Counted from the whole stretch's first letter, positions 33,012 through 52,291 are shown. The stretch: DNA of 63,987 nt, filler included, from an uncultured Methanosarcinales archaeon (GCA_964397315.1; 4 parts of 4 records of this genome joined end to end with filler, not necessarily neighbours in it), one strand, 5' to 3'. The notes: a model not told the origin generated them from the sequence alone. Translations and numbers: made by a program.

Positions 33012-33020
33012 AAAGAAGAA

Positions 33021-34925: not shown

Positions 34926-35018
34926 TAAAGGCTCTAATAAGGGATTCTGTTTAAATTTTTATCGCCTCTAGCCAGGTGCACCGCAAACAATATAAACCCC
35001 CTGACTGACATCAGGGGT

Positions 35019-36429: not shown

Positions 36430-36463
36430 CAAAGAGGCAGTTCAAGAAAAGAGGCAGTTCAAG

Positions 36464-37639
36464 ATGGCGCACAAGTTTGATGCAAGACACCTCAGCCTTG
36501 TTGATCACGGGCTTGCGGAAACAAAAGCTGTGGTGACAATAAAGTCAAAGGTTGACGGCTCTGGGAAAGGGGCATTGTATTACTCAGGATACTCAATAGA
36601 GGATCTGGCTGACAAGTCAACATTTGAGGAGGTGTGTTTTCTTCTTCTCAATGACAGGCTTCCCTCAAAAAAAGAGCTTGAGAGGCTGAGGAGGGAGCTT
36701 GCGGAAAATAGGGGCCTGAGCAGGGAGACCCTAGGGATAATAAAAAAAGTCAGGGGCGACGAGCCCATGGCAGCATTGCGGACTGCTGTATCAGCACTCT
36801 CTGCATCATCTGCATCAGCAAAAGGCGTTGAAGATGATGATGAGAACAAGGCAAAGGATCTCATAGCAAAGCTTCCCTCCATTGTTGCAGCCATACACAG
36901 GGCAAGAAAAGGGCTGGAAATTGCTGAGCCTGACACATCCCTCAGCACAGCAGCAAGCTTCCTGCACATGCTCACAGGAAAGAGGCCCTTGGATGAGGAC
37001 GCAAGGCTGCTTGACATACTTCTCATGGTGATGGCTGACCATGGCATGAACGCGTCCACCTTTGCAGCAAGAGTGGTGGCCTCAACAGGCTCTGATATTT
37101 ACTCTGCAATAACCGCTGCAATAGGAGCTCTGAAGGGGCATCTTCACGGGGGGGCTAATGAGGAGGCAATGAAGATGATCGGCGCTCTGGCAGGGAAGCT
37201 TGAGGGCTCTGATGACCTGAAAAAGGATGCTGAAGAATGGGTCAGCTCCCGCCTCAGGAAGGGCAGAAAGATTATGGGGGTGGGGCACAGGGTATACACA
37301 GGAGGAGACCCAAGGGCAAGGATACTCAGGAAGAAGATAACCGAGATTCTCGGAGAGGACAACAGGATGCTTGTCATAGCAGATGCAATAGACAGTTTCA
37401 TGCAGAAAGAAAAAGGGCTTAGCGCGAATATGGACCTTTACTCAGGGATACTCTACTCAAGGCTGGGCATACCTGAGGAGCTTTTCACTCTCATGTTTGC
37501 GATGTCCAGGATAGCGGGATGGACCTCCCATGTGCTTGAACAGAGGGTGAACAACAAGCTGATCAGGCCCAGAGGTGTTTATGTTGATGAGGTCAGGCCT
37601 GTAGGCAGGAGGTATGCTCCTGTTGGAGAAAGGCAGTAA
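36464..37639 (+). CDS. gltA: Citrate synthase / 2-methylcitrate synthase
   Basis: DHGMNASTF, LHGGANE, MG.GHRVY..GDPRA, N.D.Y, LIRP. Confidence 0.92.
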   Translation: MAHKFDARHLSLVDHGLAETKAVVTIKSKVDGSGKGALYYSGYSIEDLADKSTFEEVCFLLLNDRLPSKKELERLRRELAENRGLSRETLGIIKKVRGDEPMAALRTAVSALSASSASAKGVEDDDENKAKDLIAKLPSIVAAIHRARKGLEIAEPDTSLSTAASFLHMLTGKRPLDEDARLLDILLMVMADHGMNASTFAARVVASTGSDIYSAITAAIGALKGHLHGGANEEAMKMIGALAGKLEGSDDLKKDAEEWVSSRLRKGRKIMGVGHRVYTGGDPRARILRKKITEILGEDNRMLVIADAIDSFMQKEKGLSANMDLYSGILYSRLGIPEELFTLMFAMSRIAGWTSHVLEQRVNNKLIRPRGVYVDEVRPVGRRYAPVGERQ

Positions 37640-37665
37640 GACCCAGGCAGGTGTGTTTTCTTTGC

Positions 37666-38841
37666 TCAGAACAACTCAGCATTATCCTCAAGCGCCTTTA
37701 TGCCGGGCAGCTCCTTTCCCTCAAGGAATTCTATTGAGGCCCCCCCTCCTGTGCTGACATGAGTCATCTTGTCCTCAAGACCCCACTTCCTTATTGCCTC
37801 TGCTGTGTCTCCTCCGCAGATAACAACTGTCTTGTCAGCCCCTGCAAGGTACTTTGCAATCTCTCTTGTTCCCTTTGAGAACTTCTCTATCTCAAAAACA
37901 CCCATGGGGCCGTTCCATATGACAGTCTTTGCCTCAGAGAGCTTTTTCTTGAAATAGCCTATTGACTCAGGCCCTATGTCGAGGCCCATCATCTCAAAGG
38001 GGATGTCTGCCACTCCCGCCACTTTTGTCTCAGCATCCTCTGACTTCCTTTCCGCCACTACAAAGTCGCTGGGCAGGATTATCTTGTCCTCATAATCAGC
38101 GAGAAGGTATTTTGATGAGTAAACATGCTCCTCGTCAACCTTGCTCTTTCCCACCTCAAATCCCTTTGACTTTAGAAAGGTAAAGACTACAGCCCCTCCG
38201 AATATGGTGAAGTCAAGCCTCTCTATCATGTTCTTCATGAGGTCAAGCTTTCCCTCCACTTTTGCAAAGCCGAACAGGGCTGCGGCAGGCCTCTCAGGAT
38301 GGAGTATGCTTTTCAGGTGCTTTATCTCATACTCAAGGAGCTTTCCCGCGCAGGAGGGCAGGAATCTAGGCACGCCAACTACAGAGGCGTGCGCCCTGTG
38401 GGATGTTCCGAAAGCATCATTCACGAATATCTCGCCGTACTTTGACAGGGCCTTTGCAAACTCCTCATTGTTCTCCTTCTCTGCCTTGTGGAACCTCAGG
38501 TTTTCAAGAAGGATTATCCTTTCATCCTCAGGAGGTGTCTCGTCAATGCAGTCATTAAGCTTTAGCAGCGGCTTTCCCAGAAGCTCTGAAAGCCTGTCAG
38601 CCACCCTGTCCATCTTCAGCCCGTCAACAATCTCTCCCTTCGGCCTTCCCAGATGGCTCATCAGGACTATCTGCTTTGCTCCCTTGTCAAGCAGGTGCTT
38701 TATTGTGGGCAGTGTCTTTCTTATCTTCCAGTCATCCAGGACATTACCCTTGTCACCAAGGGGCACGTTGAAGTCGCACCTTACAAGCACCTTCTTGTCT
38801 TTGAAATCAAAATCCTCAAGTACCTTGTGCATTTCGCTCAC
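37666..38841 (-). CDS. pgk: Phosphoglycerate kinase
   Basis: DFNVP, SHLGRP, LENLRF, NDAFG..HRAHAS, WNGPMG, STGGGA. Confidence 0.97.
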   Translation of the reverse strand: MSEMHKVLEDFDFKDKKVLVRCDFNVPLGDKGNVLDDWKIRKTLPTIKHLLDKGAKQIVLMSHLGRPKGEIVDGLKMDRVADRLSELLGKPLLKLNDCIDETPPEDERIILLENLRFHKAEKENNEEFAKALSKYGEIFVNDAFGTSHRAHASVVGVPRFLPSCAGKLLEYEIKHLKSILHPERPAAALFGFAKVEGKLDLMKNMIERLDFTIFGGAVVFTFLKSKGFEVGKSKVDEEHVYSSKYLLADYEDKIILPSDFVVAERKSEDAETKVAGVADIPFEMMGLDIGPESIGYFKKKLSEAKTVIWNGPMGVFEIEKFSKGTREIAKYLAGADKTVVICGGDTAEAIRKWGLEDKMTHVSTGGGASIEFLEGKELPGIKALEDNAELF

Positions 38842-38912
38842 CTCTTTTTGGGTTTATGTGCTGCAAAACCCCTTTGTTTATTTATTTTTTGGAATATATC
38901 CTTGATGATGGA

Positions 38913-39073
38913 GGGACATTCGCTTTGCTCAGTCCCACGAACTGCCTGTAATCTTAAAATAATGACCCCAAGGGGATTCTGAACGAGCGTCACCACTACC
39001 CTCGGAAGCGAAGCTGGTGGGACATTCGCTTTGCTCAGTCCCACGAACTGCCTGTAATCTTAAAATAATGACC
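38913..39073. repeat. tRNA-associated hairpin mini-element with duplicated tRNA-Arg 3' end (~55-bp tandem duplication)
   Basis: GGGACATTCGCTTTGCTCAGTCCC...AATAATGACC occurs twice; core homologous to 54752-54819. Confidence 0.7.
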
Positions 39074-39242
39074 NNNNNNNNNNNNNNNNNNNNNNNNNNN
39101 NNNNNNNNNNNNNNNNNNNNNNNNNNNNNNNNNNNNNNNNNNNNNNNNNNNNNNNNNNNNNNNNNNNNNNNNNCCAAGGGGATTCGAACCCCTACCGACC
39201 GGGCCGAAACCGGTAGCACTATCCTGGTTATGCTATGGGGCC
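39069..39242 (-). tRNA. tRNA-Arg(TCG); 3' acceptor strand interrupted by a 100-N scaffold gap (39074-39173)
   Basis: GGCCCCA..., ACCGG-TTTCGGC-CCGGT anticodon arm, GGTTCGAATCC; GACC|CCAAGGGG joins seamlessly across the gap. Confidence 0.85.
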
Positions 39243-39427
39243 TTGTGTTTTCGGGTTGTATTTTTTTAGTGGTGCGTACGGTTGAGTGTGGCGAAACCGT
39301 ACCCGCTTTTGCGTGCCAGCTGGGCGTAACCAGCTGTTCTGGTTATGCTATGGGGCCTTTGGTGTTTATAAAACCATCTCTTTTATAAATATAGCCCTAA
39401 GATAAAGCCTCATTCATCTGCAAAGAA

Positions 39428-39589
39428 TCACTCTTCCTTCTTCTTTAATGGGTGCTCTCCCTGGCCGACCCAGATGTAATCATCTTCAGGAGACCTGGGT
39501 TTCCTGTGCCTTGTGATATAATAGTAGGCTCCGAAGCCTATGAGCCCCAGCGCAACCAATACAATTATTACTATCACATAAGGATTCAA
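39428..39589 (-). CDS. Small single-TM protein (53 aa)
   Basis: GGGGTGA RBS, TTG start, hydrophobic N-terminus. Confidence 0.5.
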   Translation of the reverse strand: MNPYVIVIIVLVALGLIGFGAYYYITRHRKPRSPEDDYIWVGQGEHPLKKKEE

Positions 39590-39616
39590 TATGTCACCCC
39601 AGTTTTTCAGGCAGGA

Positions 39617-39898
39617 TTACTTCCTTCCGAGTGTGATCTCAATAGTGCTTACCCTTACCTGCTTTCCTTCCTTGTTCTCGAACTCTTCTGAGTCAATCTT
39701 TATGTCCTTGGGCTCCACTTTTCCTTCCAGGAATCTCTTTGCAGCAACTTCAGCCACGTCAACGCCCCGGCTTATGAATTTTCCCCTTGCCTTTATCACA
39801 ACACTGTCAGCGTTTTTTGTGGTGAACTGCATCACTACGCCTGTCACATAATTCATGAAAGGCTTGTTCCCTATAAACACAGAGTTGTCTTGTGCCAT
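39617..39898 (-). CDS. albA: DNA/RNA-binding protein Alba
   Basis: IG.KP.MNYV, KARG..IS..VDVAE, VS.IEI. Confidence 0.96.
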   Translation of the reverse strand: MAQDNSVFIGNKPFMNYVTGVVMQFTTKNADSVVIKARGKFISRGVDVAEVAAKRFLEGKVEPKDIKIDSEEFENKEGKQVRVSTIEITLGRK

Positions 39899-39924
39899 TC
39901 TTCCACCTCCCTCTGTTCAGCTGT

Positions 39925-40116
39925 CTATGCCGCCTCTTTCCTCTTCAGCCTCGTAACATATCCCGCTATGATGTTCCTTATCTTTTGCGAAGGGAATTCC
40001 ATGAACTTCTCTGCCAGCTTTTTGTTCTCTTCAAAGTCCTCTGTAAACTCGTCTCCGTGAGCGCCTATGAGCTCCTTCACTTTCCTCTTTACCAGCTTTG
40101 TTTTTATCCTTCCCAT
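39925..40116 (-). CDS. rps17e: 30S ribosomal protein eS17
   Basis: MGRIKT, F..DFE.NK, RN.IAGY.T. Confidence 0.96.
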   Translation of the reverse strand: MGRIKTKLVKRKVKELIGAHGDEFTEDFEENKKLAEKFMEFPSQKIRNIIAGYVTRLKRKEAA

Positions 40117-40326
40117 AATCCCCCTTGAAATCTGTGTTGGGCCATCCAATAAGGAATTGATTTATAAATCTTTTGGAAAAAGCAGAGCTTTCAGAGGGGG
40201 CATCAGGCCGGCCTGAGCCAGGAATTACTACAGGGGAGGGGTTGAAAACGAAACCTTTATATATTTGTATATTAACTCTGAATCTCATCCTGATTAATTT
40301 GATAATCAATATGGAGGGGCGCGAAT

Positions 40327-40743
40327 ATGGCAGGATTTTTTTCAAAAATAAGAGAGAGAATGTCAGGTTCTGATGACTTTGAGATACCCAATGAGATTGA
40401 TGAGGGTTATGTGGAGCTGTCCACAGAGGGTGATGAGGGCTCCCAGTCAAAGATAACAGTCAGGCCTTTTGTGCTTGAGGACTTCGGAGACGTGAAGAAC
40501 GTGCTTGACTCCCTCAGGGAAGGGTATACTGTAGCTCTTGTTAACATAAAGCCTCTCAAGGACAAGGATCTTGTTGAGCTGAAGAGGGCTGTCAGCAAGC
40601 TCAAGAAGACTGCTGACGCTATTGAGGGTGACATTGCAGGATTCGGAGAGGACTGGATATGCCTCTGCCCTTCTTTTGCGCAGATACACAGGGAACAGCA
40701 GAAGAAGAAGGAAGTGCAGGACGTTAATCCCGAAGAGTTCTGA
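40327..40743 (+). CDS. sepF: Cell division protein SepF
   Basis: L..G...LVNI..L, ELKRA..KLK....I.GDIAG. Confidence 0.85.
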   Translation: MAGFFSKIRERMSGSDDFEIPNEIDEGYVELSTEGDEGSQSKITVRPFVLEDFGDVKNVLDSLREGYTVALVNIKPLKDKDLVELKRAVSKLKKTADAIEGDIAGFGEDWICLCPSFAQIHREQQKKKEVQDVNPEEF

Positions 40744-40884
40744 TTAGATTATTTATGTTTTTTATGCGCTTTTGATTTTTCTGTCTTAAGTTTATTATCC
40801 TAATAGCTCATGATACTCCCTTTTGGAGAAATGTGTTCCTGCTGGCTTTTCATGGTAATTCCCACCCTTGGGTAGACGATATTT

Positions 40885-40984
40885 NNNNNNNNNNNNNNNN
40901 NNNNNNNNNNNNNNNNNNNNNNNNNNNNTTAATTAATTAANNNNNNNNNNNNNNNNNNNNNNNNNNNNNNNNNNNNNNNNNNNN
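40885..40984. other. Assembly junction (N + TTAATTAATTAA linker)
   Basis: N run with the linker at 40929-40940. Confidence 0.97.
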
Positions 40985-41039
40985 TCACGAGGAGAATTTT
41001 TTCGAGGAAATTGAACTTCCCTTAAGCCCGATGTTAGTT
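40985..41039 (+). repeat. attC-like site 1 (right half only, truncated by the contig end)
   Basis: ...CTTAAGCCCGAT-GTTAGTT, same right end as sites 5 and 6. Confidence 0.7.
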
Positions 41040-41088
41040 GCAATTATTTTCAAGGGCTAAAAATGAGAAGGGGGGACAATTTCAAGAA

Positions 41089-41718
41089 TTACTTTATTGC
41101 TTCAATATCAAATGCTTTCATTTCATCAAAATATATAGTTGGTTTGATCTTAAATTGAGAAAATTTAGATAATATTTGTTTAATTTCTTTTTTAGAAAAA
41201 TAGTGATGAGCCATATGTGGATCATCTTCCATGCCGCCTAAAAAAGTATTTGCTTCAATTTCCTTACCTCTTCCATAACTTGCATCTTTAATTGACATAA
41301 ACTCAGTTACGAGCATGCCTTTAGGTTTAAGAATTCTATATATTTCATCAACTGCTTCTTGATTATCTTTTAATAATCCATGACTTAGAACAAAAATACA
41401 AATTATTGCATCAAAATAATTGTCTGGATAAAAAGTGTGCTTTATATCTGCTACTTTGTAATTAATAGTGCGTAAGCCAATTTTTTCAGCTTTCTTTTTA
41501 GTAATTGATATGCCTGTTTTAGATGCATCTAATGCATAAACTAAAAAGCCTTCTTGAGCAAAGAATAAAGTATTTCTACCAGTCCCAGATCCTAAATCTA
41601 AAATCTTTTTGTATTTATGTTCTCTAAAAATCTGAGCATACTTTTTAATTCGGGGTATTATCTTAGGATACAAATCCCCATGCTTTTTATAAACTATTTC
41701 CCAACCTTCTTCTTTCAT
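41089..41718 (-). CDS. Class I SAM-dependent methyltransferase (cassette 1)
   Basis: ILDLGSGTGR, DAS, FDAI, IYRILKP.G. Confidence 0.9.
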   Translation of the reverse strand: MKEEGWEIVYKKHGDLYPKIIPRIKKYAQIFREHKYKKILDLGSGTGRNTLFFAQEGFLVYALDASKTGISITKKKAEKIGLRTINYKVADIKHTFYPDNYFDAIICIFVLSHGLLKDNQEAVDEIYRILKPKGMLVTEFMSIKDASYGRGKEIEANTFLGGMEDDPHMAHHYFSKKEIKQILSKFSQFKIKPTIYFDEMKAFDIEAIK

Positions 41719-41906
41719 ATAAAATGTTTAATATTTAAAACATTAATAAATGTTACTAAAATTCTTGAAATGAAATTGTCCCCCTGTTATTGTTGGTTCT
41801 TGATAGTCGCTATTCGCTCTTTTGATAGAACACCCTTGAAAATAACTCTTCGGGATTTTTTGCTTCGCAAAAATCGTTGCACTATCCCTCGGTCACTTCG
41901 TGACGC

Positions 41907-42030
41907 AACTAACAGCGATTAAAACTCCGCTCACTTGCAGTTCGCTACGCCCTTCGGTTTTGTGGGTTGCCTCAAAACCTACGGGGAAATAAATCCTTCG
42001 GATTTACTTCTCTTAATCGCGATGTTAGTT
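41907..42030 (+). repeat. attC-like site 2 (124 bp)
   Basis: AACTAAC-AGCGATTAA ... TTAATCGC-GAT-GTTAGTT paired ends with internal CTTCG hairpins. Confidence 0.85.
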
Positions 42031-42162
42031 TCAATTTTTTCGGGGGCTATAAAGATAATGGGGCACACTCTTGATAGTGCTACGCACTCTATTCTTTAAC
42101 TAAATGAATTTGGGAAATCTAGAAGAAATACTAAAAAAATAGTGGGCTAAAATAAGAAGAAA

Positions 42163-42630
42163 TTAGGACAATTTCTCTTTATCCAATAATTGCTTTAACT
42201 TTTGTAATGCTACTTTATTATTCTCCCATTTTAACAAGCTTAATGCTTTATCAAATCGAACCCATTCAAAAGTTTCATGTTCTGGATAAATGTTATTATG
42301 AATAGATATTGATAAGTTTGGATTAACTTCAAAACCAAACACATATTCAGTAATAGTGGGTATTGGTTCTCCTGTAAGATAATGTTTGTTTATCTCAAAG
42401 AGATCCACATTTTCAATGACTCTAGTAATATTTTCTTTTTTAATGCTTGCTTCTTCTAATAGTTCTCTATATGCCGCGTCTAGTTTTGAGTTATCGCTTT
42501 TTTCTAACCCGCCACATGGAGGTTGCCAGAATCCACCTTTTTCTGGAATCCTTTTTAATAAAAGGAACTCAAAAAAACCTTTATTTTTTCTAAACACAAT
42601 ACATTCTATTCGCGTAGTTCTCATTTTCAT
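42163..42630 (-). CDS. NUDIX hydrolase (NudB/dATP pyrophosphohydrolase-like; cassette 2)
   Basis: LLLKR, FWQ..GG.E.....AA.RELLEE Nudix box, EH..FEW. Confidence 0.9.
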   Translation of the reverse strand: MKMRTTRIECIVFRKNKGFFEFLLLKRIPEKGGFWQPPCGGLEKSDNSKLDAAYRELLEEASIKKENITRVIENVDLFEINKHYLTGEPIPTITEYVFGFEVNPNLSISIHNNIYPEHETFEWVRFDKALSLLKWENNKVALQKLKQLLDKEKLS

Positions 42631-43826
42631 TTAACTCCTGACAATTTACAATATGTACTCCCTTCTGGATTTAATTGCCCATATAATTCCATTTCTAATG
42701 TAAATCCTGAACATTTTTTTCCATAATCAATACATTGATCACATCTTTCTTTAAATTGCTTGCTATTTTGTCTAATTGTCTGAAGTCTTTTGTTATATCT
42801 CCAAACATTTAAGAGAGAATACCTTTCAGAAACAATATTTCCTAGAACCAATTCATCTCTTAATTGTGGATTTACATATAATACACAACCTCCAGCATAT
42901 AAATCCCCATTTGACATTATATTAAATCTAGTAAATCCATCTGAACCTCCTTCCATTAAACCAAATTGTTCTGAATTAATGGAGTTTTCTCTCAAACTAC
43001 TGCCTCTGGTCCTAACTTCTAAATTAGGATATTCAGCTTTCAATTCATCCACTTTAATCATAAAAACGCTTAATTCATCATAATCTAAGAGTTTATCTTT
43101 TATTTTTGAAGCTCTACCAATCGGTCTTGGATGAAAGAAACTTATATCATAACAAAATTCATTCGCAAAATCTAAAAGTTTTCTTACGTCTTCTTCATTA
43201 ATTAAAGAAGTAACTACGGAATTTATGGTAACTCTACAACCAGCATAACTTAATTGCTTAATTGATTCTGTTGCTTTGTCAAATGTTCCTTTGCCTCTAA
43301 TATAATTATTTCCCTCCCTAAAACCATCAAGACTAATACTAACTTCATCTGGATTTATTTCAATTAATTTTTCTAAGGTATTTTGGGTATATAAACCATT
43401 TGAGTTTAATGAGATTGTTAATCCGATTTCTTTTGCTCGTTTTAATATTGTATCCCATCCTTCTTTAAGGGTTGGTTCACCTCCGCTAAAACGGACATCA
43501 AATACTGAGTCATTACTTAATCCTTCAATAACTTTTATTGATTGTTCTAAACTTAGTTCATCATTTAATGGAACCCCAGAATTATTTAGACAAGTCTTGC
43601 ACCGAAGATTACAGGCGGCAGTTAAATCAAAATAAACTCTTATCGGAGAATATATTATTGATGTGTCTTTAAAAAATGGCTGATTATCAAATTCGATTAT
43701 GGCGTTATTTTTCTTGAATTTTAAAAAATCTTCATTTAGTAAAAAGAAATGTTCAAAACTATTTGGATCAAATATGGTCTTTCCAAATGTTTCATTTCTG
43801 GATTTAACTTGCTTTTTTTCTTTCAT
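42627..43826 (-). CDS. Radical SAM protein with degenerate SPASM domain (cassette 2)
   Basis: CNLRCKTC, SGGEP, SLDG; C-terminal CDQC-x6-C. Confidence 0.9.
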   Translation of the reverse strand: MKEKKQVKSRNETFGKTIFDPNSFEHFFLLNEDFLKFKKNNAIIEFDNQPFFKDTSIIYSPIRVYFDLTAACNLRCKTCLNNSGVPLNDELSLEQSIKVIEGLSNDSVFDVRFSGGEPTLKEGWDTILKRAKEIGLTISLNSNGLYTQNTLEKLIEINPDEVSISLDGFREGNNYIRGKGTFDKATESIKQLSYAGCRVTINSVVTSLINEEDVRKLLDFANEFCYDISFFHPRPIGRASKIKDKLLDYDELSVFMIKVDELKAEYPNLEVRTRGSSLRENSINSEQFGLMEGGSDGFTRFNIMSNGDLYAGGCVLYVNPQLRDELVLGNIVSERYSLLNVWRYNKRLQTIRQNSKQFKERCDQCIDYGKKCSGFTLEMELYGQLNPEGSTYCKLSGVK

Positions 43827-44261
43827 TGAATGATGTTCTCATTTCTAAATAATTCCATTTCATATTCAAGTTCTTTTTTTTGATTTAGCCCTATGTATTG
43901 CATTTTTAACGATATACAATCCACTACTAGTTATATCTAAGCCTCTTCCATACCCATATCTTAAGGAATTTCTTGCACAATATTTTGGATTAGAGAATCT
44001 TCCAGACAATTCATAAAATCTTGCTATTGCGGATTCCCCTTTAATAAGTCCTAATTCGCATGGTGCTTCAAACATATACTCCATAAGAGCCGAATAATGC
44101 GATTGCCCAACATCAGAAGGATAAAATTTTGCCAATAATTCAGGATAAAACTCTAACACGTTTGTTTCCAATAATTCAAAATGATTAGCAATTTTAGATT
44201 TAATTTGTTCTCTTTTATTCCAACCATCTGGTTTTATTATAAATAAAGTTTTTTCTATCAT
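43823..44261 (-). pseudogene. ndk: Nucleoside diphosphate kinase-like, frameshifted in an A8 run near the 3' end
   Basis: TLFIIKPDG, S.R..YG, NAIH; removing one A gives SKKELEYEMELF...Q* with an ATGA overlap to the next gene. Confidence 0.75.
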
Positions 44262-44262
44262 T

Positions 44263-45456
44263 TTAATAAATACAATATGGATTTTTGTGTTCTGGATTTT
44301 TCTCTCTATAAAATTCCATTTCTATACTTGCTCCGGGACATTTTACATTCTTTTCGGGACATTTTAAACAAGATTCCTGTAATCTTAAACTTATTTCTCT
44401 AAATTCTTTTAATTTAGGAGAATTTCTCCAAATATCTAATAAGCTATAATCTTCTTCTTTGATATTACCTAAATAAAAATCAGGTCTCAAATGCGGAGTA
44501 TAACCTCCAGGCCAGATGGATCCATTAGGTAACAAATTAAACCTTGTAAAACCATCAGGACCTCCCATTTTTAATCCTACGCTCGATGTAACATCAGAAG
44601 ATATTGAATTAACTACCATAACTTTAGATCCATGTAAGATTCTCATCTGCGAATATTTCGGTTTAAGTTTTTCAATTTTTTCATCAAACTCATGTAACTC
44701 TTCGTAGGAAATTACCTGGTCTAAAATTCCAAGTGCTCTACCTGCTGTTCTCATATAAAAGAAATTGATTTCTTCAACAAATCTTCCAGCTAAGTCCAAA
44801 ATTTCTTCAAGATTGTTAGCAGCTCCTTTAGTTAAAACTGTGTTTATTCTTAAATGAGCGCCTTGTTTATGGAGATCTTCGAGTGTCTTAACAGTTCTTT
44901 CGTAGTTTCCTTTACCCCTTATATAATCATGAAAATCCTGACCTCCATCAATGCTAATAGTTATTTGTTCTAAATCCAAACTTGCTAATTGATCAATAGT
45001 TTTTTCAGGATTTCTATAAACTCCATTAGTGTTCAAAGATACAGAAAAACCCAAATCTTTTGCATAACTTAATATTTCAAACCAATCAGGTCTTGCAGTA
45101 ACTTCTCCCCCGCTAAATCTAATATCAAAAACATTGTCATTCCTTAACCCATCTAAAGTTTTTGTTATTTCTTCAGTAGTCATTTCATCAGATTTAGCTT
45201 TTCCAGACTGATTAAAACAGGTTTTGCATCTAAGAAGACAAGCAGAAGTCAACTCAAAATAAATTCTTATAGGAGAATAAATTATATCATCTGGTGCTTC
45301 GGACAAATCCGCAGTCCATTTTTCAAAATCTTCAACCTCTATATCTGAAAATTTCAAATCATCTGCACTTGATAAAAATTTATGGCGCATTCTAACTTTA
45401 TCAAAGAGAGTATATCCAAACTTTTCATCACGTAAAATAAACCTTTTAGCACTCAT
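44263..45456 (-). CDS. Radical SAM protein with degenerate SPASM domain (cassette 2; paralog of 42627-43826)
   Basis: CLLRCKTC, SGGE, SIDG; C-terminal CLKC-x6-C. Confidence 0.9.
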   Translation of the reverse strand: MSAKRFILRDEKFGYTLFDKVRMRHKFLSSADDLKFSDIEVEDFEKWTADLSEAPDDIIYSPIRIYFELTSACLLRCKTCFNQSGKAKSDEMTTEEITKTLDGLRNDNVFDIRFSGGEVTARPDWFEILSYAKDLGFSVSLNTNGVYRNPEKTIDQLASLDLEQITISIDGGQDFHDYIRGKGNYERTVKTLEDLHKQGAHLRINTVLTKGAANNLEEILDLAGRFVEEINFFYMRTAGRALGILDQVISYEELHEFDEKIEKLKPKYSQMRILHGSKVMVVNSISSDVTSSVGLKMGGPDGFTRFNLLPNGSIWPGGYTPHLRPDFYLGNIKEEDYSLLDIWRNSPKLKEFREISLRLQESCLKCPEKNVKCPGASIEMEFYREKNPEHKNPYCIY

Positions 45457-45710
45457 TACTACTAATAAATAACAACAAATATATAAAGATTTTGTTTAAA
45501 AATATAAATAATTTCAGGAATAGAAATTAACTACTCTTCTTCGCCCCAAAACCCCTACGAATAGCAGTAAAGATTTCCCCAATTATAGATGTAAAATAAC
45601 GAGTGTGCCCCTTGATGTATGTTCTAGATGGTCGCTATTCGCTCCAAAGATTGAACGCCCCCGAAAAAACTTTTCGGACGAAATTTTCCCACACTTCGTA
45701 TGGGAAAAGA

Positions 45711-45840
45711 AACTAACAGGAATTTAACGGTTCGCAGGGTCGGCTTCGCCTAAAACGCCAAGCGTTTTCCTCTGCTCTCCCAAATTCAAAATTTGTGGGT
45801 TGCCTCAAATTTTGAACTTCGTTAAATTCCTCAGTTATAT
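45711..45840 (+). repeat. attC-like site 3 (130 bp)
   Basis: AACTAAC-AGGAATTTAACG ... CGTTAAATTCCTCA-GTTATAT. Confidence 0.85.
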
Positions 45841-45902
45841 TCAATTATTTTTCAGCCCCTAAATAGAAATCTTTATGAACTTTAATATATAATCTTATTA
45901 TT

Positions 45903-46163
45903 ATGAGTGATTTTGAAAAAAGGCTTAATGCAATTGAGCAAAGAAACAAGAAAGTTGAATCAGATAAAGCTTGGGAAACAAGCTGGTCAAGAAAAATAAT
46001 AATAGCCGTTTTAACTTACGCCACAATAGTATTATTTTTCTTTGTTGCTCAATTGCCAAAACCATTCATTAATTCTATTGTTCCAACAGCTGGTTTTGTT
46101 CTTTCAACATTATCCTTGCCTTTTTTCAAAAAAATATGGTTGAAGTATGGGGCTAAAAAATAA
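45903..46163 (+). CDS. Small two-TM membrane protein (cassette 3)
   Basis: RN.KVE.DKAWETSW.R followed by 2 TMs; own TATA box. Confidence 0.8.
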   Translation: MSDFEKRLNAIEQRNKKVESDKAWETSWSRKIIIAVLTYATIVLFFFVAQLPKPFINSIVPTAGFVLSTLSLPFFKKIWLKYGAKK

Positions 46164-46214
46164 CTCTGAAATTTCCCTTCGGGACGTTGCACTAAAATTC
46201 AGCCCTAACGGGGA

Positions 46215-46240
46215 ATATAACAGGAATTCCGAGGTTATGC
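46215..46240 (+). repeat. Minimal attC-like site 4 (26 bp)
   Basis: ATATAAC-AGGAATTCCGAG-GTTATGC. Confidence 0.7.
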
Positions 46241-46378
46241 TCAATTTTGATTTTTCTGGATTGTTTTTGAAAGATTCTTGACGGCAGCAACAACAAGGGA
46301 TTCATACACGGTCAGCCTTCGCTTCGCTCAGTCTGCCCTATTCGCAAAGGAAAAAACCCCACTGCGCAGGGTGAAAGA

Positions 46379-46490
46379 GCATAACAGGGCTTAAACGGTT
46401 CGAAACGACCGCCTCCGGCTATTTTGCCAAGCAAAATTCGTTCCTCCCCCAAATTTGCTACGCAAATCTCGCTTACGCCCGATGTTATGC
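46379..46490 (+). repeat. attC-like site 5 (112 bp)
   Basis: GCATAAC-AGGGCTTAA ... TTACGCCCGAT-GTTATGC. Confidence 0.85.
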
Positions 46491-46564
46491 TCAATTCAGA
46501 AAAAATGGTGGATGTAATTTGCGATTAGATAGTTTTTTATAATAGCTTTGTATTAATTCATTAA

Positions 46565-46945
46565 ATGGATACAAACCAACCCCAAAATCTCACCAAAAAA
46601 ACAGCAATGAAAAGATTCCTAATAATTTTAGTTGGCACAATTATCTTTGCTTTAGTATTTGTATATTTACAACATGGCAGAATTCAAAGTACTATTTTAA
46701 TTGCTTTTGCAATCGTCGTTCCTATCATGATAATAAGTGCAATAGTTGGTTTTAAGTATCGCGATTCGATTGCAAATCTTAAAAATAAGTTATGGTACTT
46801 CCTTCTAATTATTGGAATACTGATGGCAATAATCAATTTAGTATTGGTTTTTTTGGAAGGAAGCAATTTTAATTATTATCTTCAGATTGGGATTGGTTTG
46901 ATGTTTGTAATTTACTCTATCTACAAGATAAAAAACACCCCATAA
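46565..46945 (+). CDS. Four-TM membrane protein (cassette 5)
   Basis: 126 aa, four hydrophobic segments, TTTTTATAATA promoter. Confidence 0.8.
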   Translation: MDTNQPQNLTKKTAMKRFLIILVGTIIFALVFVYLQHGRIQSTILIAFAIVVPIMIISAIVGFKYRDSIANLKNKLWYFLLIIGILMAIINLVLVFLEGSNFNYYLQIGIGLMFVIYSIYKIKNTP

Positions 46946-47014
46946 TAACATTTTTTCTGAACTCGAAATTTTTGCCTCCGGCATCGTTGCACTAAAATTC
47001 AGCCCTAACGGAGA

Positions 47015-47039
47015 GCATAACAGGGCCCCGATGTTAGTT
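47015..47039 (+). repeat. Minimal attC-like site 6 (25 bp)
   Basis: GCATAAC-AGGGCCCCGAT-GTTAGTT. Confidence 0.7.
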
Positions 47040-47058
47040 GTAATTTGTAATCTAAAAC

Positions 47059-47550
47059 CTAGCTATAATCATAATGTAATTTTTCAAGAAGAGTATATAA
47101 TTTCCTATCCACAGAAATGCATAATTCTAGTTTATCATCAAAAGACATAGAAGAATATCCTTCGGTTTCTGGAAAAGGATTGATTGTTAAATCATTTCTA
47201 TTTAGAACTATATTCAATCTCATTAATCCAACTCCTGCATGAGTTCCCCAACAATTCAATCCCAATTTATTATGTCTTTTATGCCAATCATATTCTTCTT
47301 CTGAAAAAGAATATCTTAAATTATGCATTTCTTGATGAACATTAGTTCCCATATCAATTGGATAAGTTCCTAACAAATAATATTCTAATCTAGAAACTAT
47401 TTCTGTTGCGTTTCCATTAATTATTCCCGCTACATTAGGAACTTCTCTATATGTTGGTTCAAAAAACTGAAACGAATATTTTTCTTCAAAATGTTTAATC
47501 CATTTTGCATGTGCAGTTTTTTGTTCTGGAACTAATGTCTTCATATTCAT
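47059..47550 (-). CDS. Hypothetical protein (cassette 6)
   Basis: 163-aa AT-rich ORF filling the cassette, own TATA box. Confidence 0.75.
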   Translation of the reverse strand: MNMKTLVPEQKTAHAKWIKHFEEKYSFQFFEPTYREVPNVAGIINGNATEIVSRLEYYLLGTYPIDMGTNVHQEMHNLRYSFSEEEYDWHKRHNKLGLNCWGTHAGVGLMRLNIVLNRNDLTINPFPETEGYSSMSFDDKLELCISVDRKLYTLLEKLHYDYS

Positions 47551-47670
47551 ATATTACGGAAATTATATGCTCATTATAAAGCTTTTGACGGTTTTAGATT
47601 ACAAACTCTTCGGGATTTTTTCACTTCGTGAAAAACCACTTGCAGTTATCCCTCGGTCACTTCGTGACAC

Positions 47671-47695
47671 AACTAACAGGAATCCGATGTTACTC
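47671..47695 (+). repeat. Minimal attC-like site 7 (25 bp), array terminus
   Basis: AACTAAC-AGGAATCCGAT-GTTACTC; GC content returns to host level immediately after. Confidence 0.7.
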
Positions 47696-47696
47696 C

Positions 47697-48152
47697 TCAA
47701 AGGAATCTGCTCATTATGCTGAGGTCCTCACCATCCACGAAGTGGCTCCTGAGAAGTCCTTCCTCTTCAAATCCTGTAGAGGTGTAGAATTTTTTGTACT
47801 CCTGGAATGTCAGCGCGTGCAGCTTTCTTATGCCTCTCTTCCTGGAAATCTCAATGATGCTCTCAAGAATCTCCCTTCCATTACCTTTCCCCCTGTGCCG
47901 GGGCCACACAACCAGGTCTCTTATCTCTGCTGTGCCGCTCACATCAGTGATGAGAGAGACAGTCCCTATCCTTTCCCCTCCTTTCATGTAGATAAAGAAC
48001 TCATCATTATTTATCTCTTTCTTGTGCCCCTGCTTAAGGTAATCCTCAGCCCACTTTTTGTCATACTGCGGAGCTCCCCTCTCCCTCCAGTACTCTGCAA
48101 GAAGCTCTGCAGCTTCGCTCTCATCCTCAGGTTTAAGTCTTTCCAGGGCCAT
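47697..48152 (-). CDS. GNAT family acetyltransferase
   Basis: LVV.P.HRGKG.G, FY...GF..EG. Confidence 0.9.
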   Translation of the reverse strand: MALERLKPEDESEAAELLAEYWRERGAPQYDKKWAEDYLKQGHKKEINNDEFFIYMKGGERIGTVSLITDVSGTAEIRDLVVWPRHRGKGNGREILESIIEISRKRGIRKLHALTFQEYKKFYTSTGFEEEGLLRSHFVDGEDLSIMSRFL

Positions 48153-48238
48153 GCAAAACCCTTAAAAAGACTCATATAAAAATATAGCGGACAAGACCTT
48201 CCGATATATTTATTAAACATTCCCCCTCCTGCTGTAAT

Positions 48239-49396
48239 ATGCGCATGCCCGACTACAGGGGAGGGAGCCTTGTGAACCTGATGAGTTCGATCTCCCGGGC
48301 TCTTGGAGGGAAATCAAGTTACAGCCAGCTGAAGCAGCTGCCTTCAAGCAAGTTAAAGAACTCAAGGAATATCATCCTGATTGTCCTGGACGGCATTGGT
48401 TATGAGTATATTAAAGAGAAAGGCAAGAAAACCGTTTTTCAGGAACATCTTAAAGGAGTTATCACATCTGTATTCCCCTCAACTACAGCCTCTGCAATAA
48501 CGACCATCCTGTCAGGATTAGCACCACAACAACACGCCATAACAGGCTGGTTTGTGCACCTCAAGGAGATAGGGGCTGTGACCGCAATCCTGCCTTTTGT
48601 TACAAGGGCAGGGGGCCAATCTCTCGCCAAAGCAGGTGTAAGGAAGAGAGACATTATGGATTTCAAAAGATTTGAAGACGGTCTTAAGGCTGCCTCCTGT
48701 AATGTGACCACGCAGAACATAAAGAGGGATGAATTAAAAGACGGCACCAGCAAAAGAACAAGCGTTCTGGGTTATACAAATTTAAGGGGGTTCTTCTCGC
48801 AAATAAAAAAAGCAGTCAGGTCCAGCAATAAGAGAAAATTTGTTTACGCCTACTGGCCAGGGTTTGACGCAATAGCCCACCAGGAAGGGGTAAGGAGCAG
48901 AAAGGCAGAGGATCATTTCAGGCAGATCAGTAAAGAGCTGGGCTCATTTGTTGAGGGCATGAGGGGCACGAACACAACCATTATTATAACCTCTGATCAT
49001 GGGATGATTGACACCAGCGGTAAAAGAACAATCCGCTTGGAAGACCACCCCGGGCTAAAAGAATGTTTGACACTTCCCCTCTGCGGAGAGCCCCGCGCAG
49101 CGTATTGCTATGTTCATCCGTCCAAGACCAAGCAGTTTGAGAGGTATGTAAGAAAAAAGCTTGGGAAATGCTGCCGTCTGTACAGGAGCGAGGAACTCGT
49201 CAAAAGGAACTTTTTTGGGTTATACAAGAGGAATCCCAGGCTGAACGACCGCATTGGAGACTACACAATAATCATGAAGCATGATTATATCATAAAGGAC
49301 AGGCTTCCCGGAGAGGAGGAGAGGATTCTAGCGGGCAATCATGGAGGGCTCAGCAAAGAGGAGATGCTTGTTCCTCTTGCAGTAATCAATCTATAA
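48239..49396 (+). CDS. Alkaline phosphatase superfamily / nucleotide pyrophosphatase
   Basis: VLDGIG, FPSTT, D..AH, SDHG, HGG.S..EM.VP. Confidence 0.9.
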   Translation: MRMPDYRGGSLVNLMSSISRALGGKSSYSQLKQLPSSKLKNSRNIILIVLDGIGYEYIKEKGKKTVFQEHLKGVITSVFPSTTASAITTILSGLAPQQHAITGWFVHLKEIGAVTAILPFVTRAGGQSLAKAGVRKRDIMDFKRFEDGLKAASCNVTTQNIKRDELKDGTSKRTSVLGYTNLRGFFSQIKKAVRSSNKRKFVYAYWPGFDAIAHQEGVRSRKAEDHFRQISKELGSFVEGMRGTNTTIIITSDHGMIDTSGKRTIRLEDHPGLKECLTLPLCGEPRAAYCYVHPSKTKQFERYVRKKLGKCCRLYRSEELVKRNFFGLYKRNPRLNDRIGDYTIIMKHDYIIKDRLPGEEERILAGNHGGLSKEEMLVPLAVINL

Positions 49397-49455
49397 CAAG
49401 GGTTAACACGCCTCTTATGCAGCAGTCCTGAGAGACCAGGACCATAACACACAGC

Positions 49456-50721
49456 TCATGTCCCCTCCTGCCAGCTGGCCATGTACTTCTTCTGCTCCTC
49501 TGTCATCTCATCAATCCTCAGCCCCATTGCCTCAAGCTGCAGCCCTGCTATTGTGTCATCAATCTCCTCTGGAAGCTGAATAACCTCCACAGGCAGATTT
49601 CCCTTGTTTTTAACGCAGTACTCAACAGCAAGAGCCTGGCCGCAGAAAGATGTGCTCATTACCTCAGATGGGTGGCCTTCTGCTGCTGCAAGGTTCACGA
49701 GCCTTCCCTCGCCTGCAACAAACAGCTTTTTTCCGTCAACAATGTACTCGTCAAGGAAGGGCCTCACTTTTCTTTTTCCTGAAGCAAGCTCACCAAGCCC
49801 TTTTAGGTCTATCTCTATGTCAAAATGGCCTGAATTCGCGAGTATAGCCCCGTCTTTCATCTGCTTCATGTGCTCTGTCCTTATGGCATGCTTGTTTCCT
49901 GTCAGGGTGCAGAATATGTCTCCTATCCTGCATGCATCCTCCATCTTCATAACCCTGAATCCGTCATATGCTGCCTGCAGGGCGCAGAAATTATCCACTT
50001 CAGTGACTACGACATTCGCGCCCATGCCTTTTGCCCTCATTGCAAAGCCTTTGCCGCAGCTTCCATAGCCTGCAACCACCACTGTTTTTCCGGCAAACAG
50101 CACATTTGAGGCTCTTATTATGCCGTCAACAGTTGACTGGCCTGTGCCGTAGTAATTGTCTAAAAGGTGCTTTGTCTTGTTGTCATTGACCGCTATCATG
50201 GGGTATTTCAGGGCATTGTCCTTCTGCATTGCCTTGAGCCTTATTATTCCTGTTGTTGTTTCCTCACACCCCCCTATTATCTCAGGTATGAGGTCAGTGT
50301 GCTTCTGGTGTATCTCTGACACAAGGTCGCAGCCGTCATCTATTGTTATGTTGGGCCTGAATGATATCACATTACTGAGGTACCTGTAATAGTCCTCGTC
50401 TGTCTCTCCCTTGTATGCCCATACACTGACTCCATCCTCTGCAAGGGCTGCTGCCACATCATCCTGTGTTGAGAGGGGGTTGCAGCCTGTTATTGCCACA
50501 GAGGCGCCCCCTGCAATAAGTGTCCTTACAAGAACTGCTGTCTCTTTTGTAACATGCAGTGCCAATCCCACCTTCACTCCCTCAAGGGGCTTTTCCTGCT
50601 CAAACCTCTTCTTTATCTCCATTAATGCCCCCATGTGGCTCTCTGCTATCTCAATGTTCATCCTGCCCTGTCCTGCAATGCTCATGTCCTTTACCTCATA
50701 ATTGTCTCCAGTATCCATCAT
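49456..50721 (-). CDS. ahcY: Adenosylhomocysteinase
   Basis: CNPLSTQD, EETTTG, DN.YGTGQS, GRLVNL..A.GHP. Confidence 0.97.
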   Translation of the reverse strand: MMDTGDNYEVKDMSIAGQGRMNIEIAESHMGALMEIKKRFEQEKPLEGVKVGLALHVTKETAVLVRTLIAGGASVAITGCNPLSTQDDVAAALAEDGVSVWAYKGETDEDYYRYLSNVISFRPNITIDDGCDLVSEIHQKHTDLIPEIIGGCEETTTGIIRLKAMQKDNALKYPMIAVNDNKTKHLLDNYYGTGQSTVDGIIRASNVLFAGKTVVVAGYGSCGKGFAMRAKGMGANVVVTEVDNFCALQAAYDGFRVMKMEDACRIGDIFCTLTGNKHAIRTEHMKQMKDGAILANSGHFDIEIDLKGLGELASGKRKVRPFLDEYIVDGKKLFVAGEGRLVNLAAAEGHPSEVMSTSFCGQALAVEYCVKNKGNLPVEVIQLPEEIDDTIAGLQLEAMGLRIDEMTEEQKKYMASWQEGT

Positions 50722-50973
50722 AACCACCTTCTGCGCCAGGAATACCGCACTATTATATAATTTTCCAGGCTATTACCGGACATTGTCCATCAAATCTTCC
50801 AATGTTCCGGACAAAAAACAAAATATTTAAATATATGCTGGACATACCCTCTGAAAGGAGACAGAACCATTGAGCCATACTTCTTCATGGCTCTGAGGGG
50901 TGGTAGGTTCATATGACACTCATCGCCATATGATACTTGTTGGCGCAAGTAATCATCCCTTGGAGCCTAAAAA

Positions 50974-51405
50974 ATGAAACTTGACGGAAAAGACCATGCC
51001 ATCATATCCCTACTTAAGGAGAACTCCAGGCTGTCAGTCAGGGAAATCGGCAAGAAAACAGGCCTCAGGCCGTCCACGGTGCATGACAGGATAAGAAAGC
51101 TGGTCAAGAACAACATAATAGAAAAGTTCACCCTCAAGCTGAACAACAGGGCTGTGGGAGAGAATTTCATTGTTTTCATGCTCGTCGCAGGAAAGCCAAC
51201 AGAGTATGTGGGAGAGACAATGCTGGGCCACAGGAACATAAAGGAGGTGTTCGGCATAACAGGGGAGTATGACATGATATTCAAGCTTAAGTTCAGGGAT
51301 GTTGAGGAGTTCAACGATTTTGTGATAAAATTCAGGAAGCAGAACAGGAACGTGACAAAAACAATGACAATGGTCGCCACAGCCACGCTCAAGGAGGAAT
51401 TGTGA
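50974..51405 (+). CDS. Lrp/AsnC family transcriptional regulator
   Basis: LD..D..I...L..N.R HTH; GITGEYD RAM domain. Confidence 0.92.
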   Translation: MKLDGKDHAIISLLKENSRLSVREIGKKTGLRPSTVHDRIRKLVKNNIIEKFTLKLNNRAVGENFIVFMLVAGKPTEYVGETMLGHRNIKEVFGITGEYDMIFKLKFRDVEEFNDFVIKFRKQNRNVTKTMTMVATATLKEEL

Positions 51406-51529
51406 GAGAAAACTACAATGCAAGACTGGAGCTGACATACAAAAGGCCTGGCAAAGATACTCGGCAGGGAAGAGACAACAAAGGGAATCAGGAAAAAATA
51501 TAAAAAGAGAAGAGCATGGCAGGATAAGA

Positions 51530-52099: not shown

Positions 52100-52190
52100 T
52101 AGGCTAAAGGTTTCAAAAAGCTAAGCTTTTTGGAACACCAAAAATTGAAGATTTTTGATTCCCACGGCTTTAAGCAGCCGCTTTTGGCAG

Positions 52191-52260
52191 GCGGATTTCT
52201 GGAACTTTTAAAAGCCTTCATCTCCGCACCAAAGTGCGGAGCTTCCGGCTTATTAAAAGT
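52191..52260. repeat. 70-bp REP-like palindromic repeat, copy 1
   Basis: 68/70 identical to 56005-56074; CTCCGCAC-NAAA-GTGCGGAG hairpin. Confidence 0.8.
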
Positions 52261-52291
52261 GACTGCCGCCTTCCCCCTATGATAGAGCCTA

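Follow-up and report, generated by a model that had tools for sequence, protein, structure and literature searches.

The closest described systems are integrons, whose attC sites measure 57-141 bp and form imperfect hairpins with extrahelical bases, an unpaired central spacer and a variable terminal structure (PMC5371416). Integrons have also been reported from archaea, in 75 metagenome-assembled genomes (MAGs) that include Nanoarchaeota, mostly as attC clusters without an integrase (Ghaly 2022, PMC9668308). In rows of the supplement to that survey, MAGs of Woesearchaeales and Pacearchaeales have two to four attC sites, none of these rows listing an IntI (PMC9668308). Another kind of short recombination site, dif, consists of two 11-nt inverted arms around a 6-nt spacer (11-6-11; PMC8371274). 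Here we describe an array of mostly gene-bearing units joined at a TAAC/GTTA core in a stretch of 63,987 nt (assembly GCA_964397315.1), the whole of which is called the window below. We consider it somewhat better than an even bet that this locus represents an array of mobile gene cassettes in the chromosome of a woesearchaeote, with an integron-like logic, a site architecture of its own and a recombinase encoded elsewhere.

The window joins four contigs (1-20823, 20924-40884, 40985-60807 and 60908-63987) through artificial linkers of the form N44-TTAATTAATTAA-N44 (20824-20923, 40885-40984 and 60808-60907), across which features cannot be read. The array stands at the very beginning of the third contig (19,823 nt, starting at 40985), the linker positions bearing out the contig end that a reading made from the sequence alone (hereafter the sequence-only reading) had placed there. 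Six units, U1 to U6, tile 41033-47677 head to tail and in a single polarity, and the arrangement which that reading had proposed, with discrete cassettes in tandem and a conserved AAC...GTT core at their joints, is indeed present: its coordinates for all six units (41033/41913, 42024/45717, 45834/46221, 46234/46385, 46484/47021 and 47033/47677) proved exact, and so did the self-complementary ends expected if a circular cassette rebuilds its own site, with exact 9-nt terminal inverted repeats that start with GTTA and end with TAAC in 6/6 units. Six of its seven AAC...GTT junctions are complete; the leftmost, cut by the contig start, shows the GTT side only. One point needs amending: the complementarity of 9 bp is exact but a minimum, and further helices continue inward.

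Given fixed GTTA and TAAC, the five free bases of a unit would match by chance about once in 1000 (arithmetic, per unit). The AT-rich island that contains the array holds eight exact 9-mer GTTA...TAAC inverted pairs, namely the six units, one cross pair and one stray, to be compared with a mean of 0.66 and a maximum of 6 in 1000 first-order Markov resamplings, and with three such pairs in the remaining 55,160 nt of the window. The format of a unit is GTTA-N5-AATT at its start and N5'-TAAC at its end, and the junction consensus TAAC-A-GG...CC-GA-T-GTTA describes a stem with two additional bases on its 3' arm. The motif TAACAG...GTTA occurs six times in the island, always on the plus strand, and only twice elsewhere, at 31540 and 31959, inside coding DNA of another contig, where we read it as chance. 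From left to right, the spacers measure 110, 116, 12, 98, 11 and 11 nt; three junctions are attC-like hairpins of 116-134 nt and three measure 19-20 nt from core to core.

The complementarity of the unit ends extends past the 9-mers (helix H1) into a second helix of 13-16 bp and often a third, all of them specific to the unit. Inward from the 5' 9-mer come AA and then a box of 13-16 nt, boxA, whose complement boxA' lies 39-63 nt upstream of the 3' 9-mer (helix H2); a further pair, boxB, is found in U1, U2 and U6 (helix H3). With the 9-mers excluded, the two ends of the same unit pair with -32.1, -27.1, -13.6, -8.6, -17.9 and -26.9 kcal/mol in U1 to U6, and ends of different window units mostly with -6 to -16 kcal/mol; U4 (-8.6 kcal/mol) has no own-pair advantage. 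A generic repeat search on the island was dominated by AT-rich noise and recovered only boxA of U6 and boxB of U2. The parts of the array and the gene at its right edge are as follows, with open reading frames (ORFs) given in amino acids (aa), GC denoting guanine-plus-cytosine content, SAM S-adenosylmethionine, and the module types being those described further below.

40985-41032, plus strand: J0, the 3' part of a long junction spacer, truncated by the contig start
41033-41913, plus strand: U1, 881 nt, with ends GTTAGTTGC / GCAACTAAC
41044-41059 with 41830-41845: boxA helix of U1
41071-41084 with 41771-41784: boxB helix of U1
41089-41718, minus strand: cargo of U1, SAM-dependent methyltransferase, 28.6% GC
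41846-41904: 3' structured module of U1
41914-42023, plus strand: J1, long spacer, 110 nt
42024-45717, plus strand: U2, 3694 nt, with ends GTTAGTTTC / GAAACTAAC
42035-42050 with 45654-45669: boxA helix of U2
42060-42070 with 45601-45611: boxB helix of U2
42163-42630, minus strand: first of the four cargo genes of U2, NUDIX
42627-43826, minus strand: second, radical SAM/SPASM
43866-44261, minus strand: third, NDK-like
44263-45456, minus strand: fourth, radical SAM/SPASM
45670-45708: 3' module of U2, type A
45718-45833, plus strand: J2, long spacer, 116 nt
45834-46221, plus strand: U3, 388 nt, with ends GTTATATTC / GAATATAAC
45845-45860 with 46148-46163: boxA helix of U3
45903-46163, plus strand: cargo of U3, 86-aa ORF, no Pfam match
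46164-46212: 3' module of U3, type B, including CGTTGCACTAAAA
46222-46233, plus strand: J3, short spacer AGGAATTCCGAG
46234-46385, plus strand: U4, 152 nt, a gene-less frame without ORF, with ends GTTATGCTC / GAGCATAAC
46386-46483, plus strand: J4, long spacer, 98 nt, in a 116-nt hairpin with a perfect 10-bp basal stem
46484-47021, plus strand: U5, 538 nt, with ends GTTATGCTC / GAGCATAAC
46495-46510 with 46946-46961: boxA helix of U5
46565-46945, plus strand: cargo of U5, 126-aa ORF with a weak Bax1-I match below the Pfam cutoff (19.4 vs 34.1 bits)
46962-47012: 3' module of U5, type B
47022-47032, plus strand: J5, short spacer AGGGCCCCGAT
47033-47677, plus strand: U6, 645 nt, with ends GTTAGTTGT / ACAACTAAC
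47044-47059 with 47590-47605: boxA helix of U6 (16/16)
47095-47105 with 47558-47568: boxB helix of U6
47059-47550, minus strand: cargo of U6, 163-aa ORF, no Pfam match
47606-47668: 3' module of U6
47678-47697, plus strand: J6, terminal short junction, with spacer AGGAATCCGAT (47678-47688) and outermost half-site GTTACTCCT (47689-47697)
47697-48152, minus strand: GNAT acetyltransferase gene, 48.5% GC and host-like, at the right island edge and outside the array

Folded together with their 9-mers, J1, J2 and J4 consist of a basal stem, a 2-nt bulge, an inner stem of 4-12 bp and a tip of three hairpins. J1 with its two 9-mers gives an imperfect 128-nt hairpin with the 2-nt bulge and a branched tip, and carries a loop motif, TGTGGGTTGCCTCA, common to J1, J2 and the related locus L019; J2 gives a hairpin of 134 nt, in which the inner stem measures 11 bp (AGGAATTTAAC/GTTAAATTCCT) and the tip consists of three hairpins. 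These long junctions are predicted to be slightly more stable on the minus strand (-28.0 vs -25.3, -31.1 vs -29.6 and -27.0 vs -23.5). J3, J5 and J6 correspond to the base of a long-junction stem without the interior, reading A-GGAATTCC-GAG, A-GGGCCC-CGAT and A-GGAATCC-GAT, respectively. J0 ends in ...CTTAAGCCCGAT directly before the first core, and the ending ...CCCGAT|GTTA is common to J0, J4 and J5. At the right end of the array, a short junction abuts the GNAT gene: the half-site GTTACTCCT of J6 is without the usual AATT and overlaps the stop codon of that gene by one base.

On the 3' side only, a structured module sits outside the core pair, between H1 and H2, the 39-63 nt between boxA' and the 3' 9-mer comprising small hairpins and a conserved unpaired CGTTGCACTA. 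Nearly all of the module loops read C(TTC)G on the plus strand, and the plus strand of the island contains CTTCG 19 times and CGAAG once, as compared with 17 and 13 times in the remainder of the window. Gene-less units of 122-164 nt take a multi-arm fold composed of H1, the boxA arm and two small hairpins. Between boxB' and boxA', a second conserved motif, in which TTGAT(A)CG comes after a C(TTC)G hairpin, was seen at 41800-41835 and 45612-45655 as well as in the related loci L025, L035, L019 and L029; TTGAT(A)CG resembles CTTGATA, which we take to be the nick motif of pC194-type rolling-circle replicons, and the resemblance may be coincidence.

The island differs from its surroundings in base composition, as the sequence-only reading had noticed: GC is 0.29-0.37 in the windows of 41-48 kb and about 0.46-0.49 in the windows beyond, with roughly 0.42-0.52 over most of the rest of the stretch. 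The cargo genes have 28.6-31.7% GC, compared with 47.1-49.0% in the next three genes, which encode the GNAT protein, a phosphodiesterase and an adenosylhomocysteinase (AdoHcyase).

The same site family is widespread in Woesearchaeota and Nanoarchaeota. One scan of a species-representative genome collection with the pattern TAACAGG N1-6 CCGANGTTANNNNYAATT returned 46 loci on 39 contigs of about 34 assemblies, where roughly 13 are expected by chance according to an information-content estimate. By label, 16 of these loci are Woesearchaeota, 13 Nanoarchaeota, Nanoarchaeia or Nanobdellati, 4 'archaeon', 7 Methanosarcinales or Methanosarcinaceae, 1 Bathyarchaeia, 1 Methanobacteriota and 4 bacterial. 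Two loci, L021 (Clostridium) and L042 (Bacteroidota), lie inside ordinary genes and were set aside as looking like chance pattern matches. The Methanosarcinales or Methanosarcinaceae labels belong to L012, L024, L031 and L043, all from one 'Methanosarcinales' MAG, and to L005, L009 and L030; the top nucleotide matches of the first four (69-78%) are in Woesearchaeota or Nanoarchaeota loci, and they are possibly DPANN contigs mis-binned with a host genome, or else the site family has possibly spread to another phylum. The spacers of the seed sites measure 8-14 nt in all 46 loci, the long form being about 80-120 nt in the family, and four units in succession in L001 (from a 559-kb contig) are linked only by spacers of 10-11 nt. 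Whole arrays lie on long contigs, for example on a Woesearchaeota contig of 559 kb, with its sites at 536-553 kb, and on one of 100 kb, with its sites at 68-80 kb. The unconstrained base of CCGAN is T in 43/48 non-redundant instances, and the spacer stems covary (GGAA/TTCC, GGGC/GCCC, GGCA/TGCC, GGCG/CGCC and GGGA/TCCC). AAC...GTT boundaries and complementarity of R'' and R' within the cassette are also found in many units of these loci.

The specificity of the end pairing holds across the family. Thirty-two units, 5 from the window and 27 from the loci, were curated by removing overlapping and nested calls by hand; own-end pairing was the best among all 62 comparisons in 24/32 of them, with a mean of -23.8 for own pairs and of -10.6 (standard deviation 2.6) for mismatched pairs. 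A boxA helix of 11-16 bp directly follows '9-mer + AA' in 25/32 units, and the 365 positions of these helices contain 8 mismatches and zero plus-strand G-T pairs. The 3' modules form at least three families that recur in different MAGs. In the alignment of type B modules (11 sequences), three helices are paired in 91.5% of cells and 7 pairs are changed on both sides, a covariation score reached by 0/500 shuffles, with slid controls 33-58% paired, the columns of the junction helix being partly fixed by the search pattern. On the plus strand, 45 module regions together contain 15 triloop hairpins of the form C(TNC)G and none of the form C(GNA)G, the shuffle mean being 0.19. A covariance model built from the type B alignment and run on the window and 45/46 loci (L002 was omitted as it overlaps L001) gave 76 matches at E <= 0.01, each on the seed strand of its locus, the largest number in one locus being 5 at this cutoff and, in L025, 7 at E <= 1. 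Within the window it found only J3 (46154-46246, 88 bits) and J5 (46952-47045, 74 bits) at the cutoff, followed by a weak match to J6 (47596-47701, E = 0.019). The model outperformed a strict regular expression for the junction, which matched 70 times on the array strand and 0 times on the opposite one and added few sites, because variants like CCCGGC-GTTA and CCTCA-GTTA escape it. Units mostly contain one ORF of 70-360 aa. Relative to the frame, the cargo is on the minus strand in 24 and on the plus strand in 18 of 42 units with an ORF >= 60 aa, a list that retains a few overlapping or false units; the cargo-bearing cassettes of the window are three minus and two plus. A blastn search with 45560-45900 gave no match among PLSDB plasmids and INPHARED phages.

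Reuse of a cassette is seen between L006 and L038, which come from different MAGs and share one cassette with 89% identity over about 500 nt; the two copies are similar up to the cores and have unrelated sequence to either side. This reuse among different neighbours supports modularity of the cassettes across genomes. Two further pairs, L012/L027 (77%, 1066 nt) and L038/L043 (73%, 569 nt), share genes and are uninformative on mobility, as their homology blocks do not end at cores. Duplicated segments of about 500 and 233 nt with 97-98% identity occur in L007/L037, which lie 3.8 kb apart on one 100-kb contig, and in L022/L040, from one MAG; they begin exactly at the start of the 3' module and cross the junction into the next unit, and a second breakpoint may lie at the AACT boundary of the module. 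The protein of U6 has 13 database homologues (54-100% identity), all on contigs <= 8.1 kb, as would be expected of genes in repeat-bounded arrays that assemble badly. One database copy (P0121) is 100% identical over 161 aa, with its longest contig given as 1217 nt; the U6 cassette may have been assembled separately, possibly as a circle, or in another context. The compact four-gene operon of U2, with a NUDIX hydrolase, an NDK-like kinase and two radical SAM/SPASM genes, suggests a function in nucleotide or peptide modification and transfer as a single cassette.

On these observations (the anatomy of the array, the distribution of the family, unit-specific complementarity, covariation, strand polarity, the reuse of one cassette and foreign base composition) we base a proposal in which recombination itself, the point of crossover, the single-stranded form and the enzyme are what we infer. 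The frame made of H1, H2, often H3 and the 3' module would assemble only when the two ends of a cassette meet, as they would in an excised circle or in a folded single strand. Site-specific recombination at the TAAC/GTTA core would excise and insert the cassettes, acting on folded single-stranded DNA, most likely the minus strand of the window, in keeping with the logic of integron attC sites, where one strand is exchanged and each cassette rebuilds its own site. The recombinase would be encoded elsewhere in the genome, and each cargo gene would bring its own promoter, leaving the orientation of the cargo free. Complementary ends, polarity, a bulged core, reuse and foreign composition together fit site-specific recombination of circular cassettes. 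Mini-hairpins of the form C(GNA)G are exceptionally stable in DNA; the strand-biased triloops have this form when read on the minus strand, and with the absence of wobble pairs they favour folded DNA in single-stranded form over RNA. The array may well work like an integron, and we leave its membership of that class unasserted.

A bolder form of this proposal, which we hold tentatively and put a little short of an even chance, is that Woesearchaeota and their relatives have a gene-cassette system of their own, not a branch of bacterial-type integrons. The cargo gene would then sit in the apical loop of a cloverleaf-like fold of single-stranded DNA, made of H1, the boxA arm and two triloop hairpins, with one half at each end of the cassette. 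When the lagging-strand template or an excised circle folds, the ends would come together and the bulged TAAC/GTTA core would be presented to a host-encoded enzyme, perhaps a paralogue of XerA or else a single-strand recombinase or HUH nuclease not recognised so far, and genes would in this way be moved between DPANN genomes of very different base composition. If this is true, the long 'attC-like' junctions detected by integron software in these MAGs are only the visible tip of that system.

Several findings weigh against site-specific recombination of mobile cassettes as proposed here. A recombinase of any kind linked to the sites was not found among the ORFs of the window or of the related loci, and when the 150 neighbouring ORFs were clustered, no recurrent protein family emerged except the TATA-binding protein (TBP; 3 contigs). 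Excised circles, empty sites and other orders of the cassettes were not observed, and the case for mobility is built on a single clean pair of shared cassettes, L006/L038. The L006 copy of that cassette has a foreign 5' pentamer (GTTAGTTTC vs 3' GAATATAAC), and the pentamer differs in L022/L040 though both flanks are 96.6% identical; crossover therefore may not always take place at G|TTA. The indications of which strand is used conflict as well. In attC sites the extrahelical bases lie on the 3' arm of the recombined strand; here, the 2 nt of the bulge belong to the 5' arm of the minus strand, so that under integron rules bulge and triloops disagree. Copying or repair, and not selection on the fold, could also have produced the near-perfect Watson-Crick arms. 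Finally, the boundary between the island of 30% GC and the flank of 48% GC coincides with a conserved core, and a slight possibility of an assembly chimera at this boundary persists.

The search for an enzyme covered both the window and the family. Among 50 window ORFs (15 + 35) there were 0 Phage_integrase matches, the left end of the array lying beyond the contig start, and there was likewise no tyrosine recombinase linked to related sites among the 150 ORFs >= 130 aa of the 46 loci and their 2-kb flanks. The latter set contained one gene each for an IS200-type Y1 transposase (in L039, with a site about 650 nt away), an IS66 transposase, an rve integrase and a reverse transcriptase. Genes for TBP adjoin junction sites in L015, L024 and L041, the last with two copies; TBP paralogues may be cargo, or the arrays may be located at a conserved TBP locus.

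That the locus is a canonical integron array, with a lineage-specific attC cluster, an IntI and attI past the contig start (where the sequence-only reading had placed them) or elsewhere, and the extra helices as local elaboration, we regard as unlikely. There are several resemblances: like integrons and integrase-less attC clusters, this is a tandem array of mostly single-gene cassettes with accessory functions, in which conserved AAC and GTT triplets stand at each boundary, the start of a cassette is complementary to the core near its own end, junctions are imperfect hairpins with bulged bases, and the sites are more similar within a lineage than the cargo. Three junctions of 116-134 nt, with their bulge and Vibrio-repeat-like branched tips, fall inside the published attC range of 57-141 bp (PMC5371416), and clusters of 2-4 attC sites without IntI, IntegronFinder-based, are on record from MAGs of Woesearchaeales and Pacearchaeales, most archaeal examples also being without a linked IntI (PMC9668308). 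The differences are of several kinds. Three of the six window junctions and all 46 seed junctions have spacers of 8-14 nt, far below attC length, and J1, J2 and J4 have no unpaired central spacer, their R and inner stems being parted only by the 2-nt bulge. The ends of a cassette are joined by two or three helices of about 35-45 bp and not by one 7-bp box; about 60 nt of conserved frame stand at its 5' end, as opposed to about 6 nt in integron cassettes; and a conserved hairpin module of 39-63 nt lies beyond the core pair. The orientation of the cargo is near random (24:18) instead of mostly uniform from a common promoter, and the 200 ORFs of window and related loci include 0 tyrosine recombinases, IntI among them. 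Of the integron-like array as originally described from the sequence, the boundaries and the end complementarity stand, and the short junctions, deep helices, extra module and free cargo orientation depart from the integron model.

The lack of a dedicated recombinase near any array, the dyad symmetry of the junctions and their variable arms around a conserved inner TAAC/GTTA would also suit Xer/dif-like modules, in which the short junction is a double-stranded core site for a host XerA-type recombinase. The pdif modules of Acinetobacter plasmids are recombined in Xer fashion, and the inner arm bases of the present sites are similar to the ..ATAA / TTAT.. of dif sequences. The units also resemble pdif modules and archaeal Xer/dif (PMC8371274) in being bounded by inverted half-sites with no recombinase gene inside. 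This explanation is nevertheless quite improbable in our view: dif has the form 11-6-11 (PMC8371274), whereas the arms here are 10-14 or about 80-120 nt apart; a fold and not a duplex is indicated by the conserved GA bulge on one side and by covariation in the GGnn/nnCC stem, and neither the strand-biased triloop hairpins nor the long unit-specific helices would have a role in a duplex core site. Compensatory helices and conserved unpaired motifs (CGTTGCACTAAAA, AACTYT) are, on the other hand, typical of structured RNA, and L045 encodes a tRNA-splicing endonuclease beside a site, and one may ask whether the frames are RNA structures whose pairing in the transcript forms processing stems, helps circularisation, stabilises the RNA or insulates transcription, the array then being no more than genes punctuated in this way. 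Much speaks against this, and we think it very unlikely. The frame keeps one polarity while the cargo runs either way (24:18), so the fold cannot be tied to the mRNA strand; no pairs of the G-U type occur in the 365 helix positions; and the loops match triloops of the form C(TNC)G and not tetraloops of the form C(UNCG)G. Rfam 15, searched permissively over 40985-48500, gave only sub-threshold chance matches to CRISPR-DR40 (E = 0.17) and mir-365 (E = 0.48) and no matching family, and the compositional break and cassette reuse are facts at the level of DNA. Bulge-helix-bulge RNA processing in particular was rejected: that motif has a 4-bp helix, and the helix between bulges here measures 9-10 bp. 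Least probable of all, to a degree that we would call slight, are non-autonomous transposons with terminal inverted repeats, lying side by side with passenger genes, or single-strand elements of the IS200/IS605 type. The terminal inverted repeats, the shared GTTA terminus, the gene-less mini-units of 122-164 nt and the Y1 transposase near a site in L039 would agree with them. Yet the repeats are unit-specific and covarying rather than conserved in a family, there is no target-site duplication (the flanks ..CCGAT and AGG.. continue the palindrome), the tiling is strictly head to tail in one polarity with a conserved spacer, and the transposase-like genes, in only 4/46 loci, are of four different kinds; elements of the IS200/IS605 group, for their part, are without terminal inverted repeats, which the units carry. 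Shufflon-like inversion was discarded as all frames have the same polarity, serine-recombinase sites as the palindrome centres differ, and IS110 bridge-RNA or TnpB systems as no such genes are present in the loci.

Among sites that act as folded DNA, attP of the CTX phage is used as a folded single strand by XerCD, a tyrosine recombinase that the host encodes, with exchange of one strand. Like it, the present site would exist only when two inverted segments of one strand pair; unlike it, the units form a cassette array, attP belonging to a single phage that integrates at dif and having its halves about 90 nt apart instead of at either end of a gene. Single-strand origins of rolling-circle plasmids and REP/REPIN hairpin repeats are similar in that they are strand-specific, long imperfect DNA hairpins with conserved unpaired motifs that function only as single-stranded DNA, and differ in that they are not split around a gene, are not tiled and have no TAAC/GTTA core.

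Integrase-less attC clusters were already known in Nanoarchaeota (Ghaly 2022, PMC9668308), and the present site architecture is apparently unpublished, no account of it having been found among the papers listed by literature searches on archaeal or DPANN integrons, attC sites and cassette arrays. DPANN archaea have tiny genomes and depend on hosts, and how they gain and lose accessory genes is poorly understood. Here, at least six imported cassettes of about 30% GC stand in a genome of about 48% GC, and the site family occurs in about 34 assemblies. If the cassettes are mobile, they would constitute a major route of gene flow in the group and a second, independent-looking solution to the 'gene cassette' problem of integrons. 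Most junctions of this family would escape integron software that is tuned to attC sites of 57-141 bp, and cassette arrays may therefore be much more frequent in archaea than the 75 reported MAGs suggest (PMC9668308). The frames also offer a concrete DNA substrate for finding the enzyme.

The host was correctly taken for a DPANN-type archaeon, since the AdoHcyase on the contig of the array has its closest named relatives in Candidatus Woesearchaeota (88% identity). Elsewhere, the window shows archaeal, DPANN-like traits: intron-bearing tRNAs, archaeal ribosomal proteins and a fused PriS-PriL primase. At the gathering score, Rfam found three tRNAs and nothing else in the whole window, at 32100-32216 (117 nt), 54639-54729 (91 nt) and 39169-39242; the first two bear introns, to judge by their lengths. 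ARAGORN recovered only one of the three, and the match at 39169-39242 adjoins a scaffold gap of 100 N (39074-39173), across which no feature is to be read. An ORF of 1305 aa (56079-59996, minus strand) has no Pfam match at E <= 1e-4. The primase is encoded by an ORF of 472 aa (18666-20084, minus strand) that combines the domains of the small and large subunits, a PriS-PriL fusion that we take to be typical of DPANN archaea.

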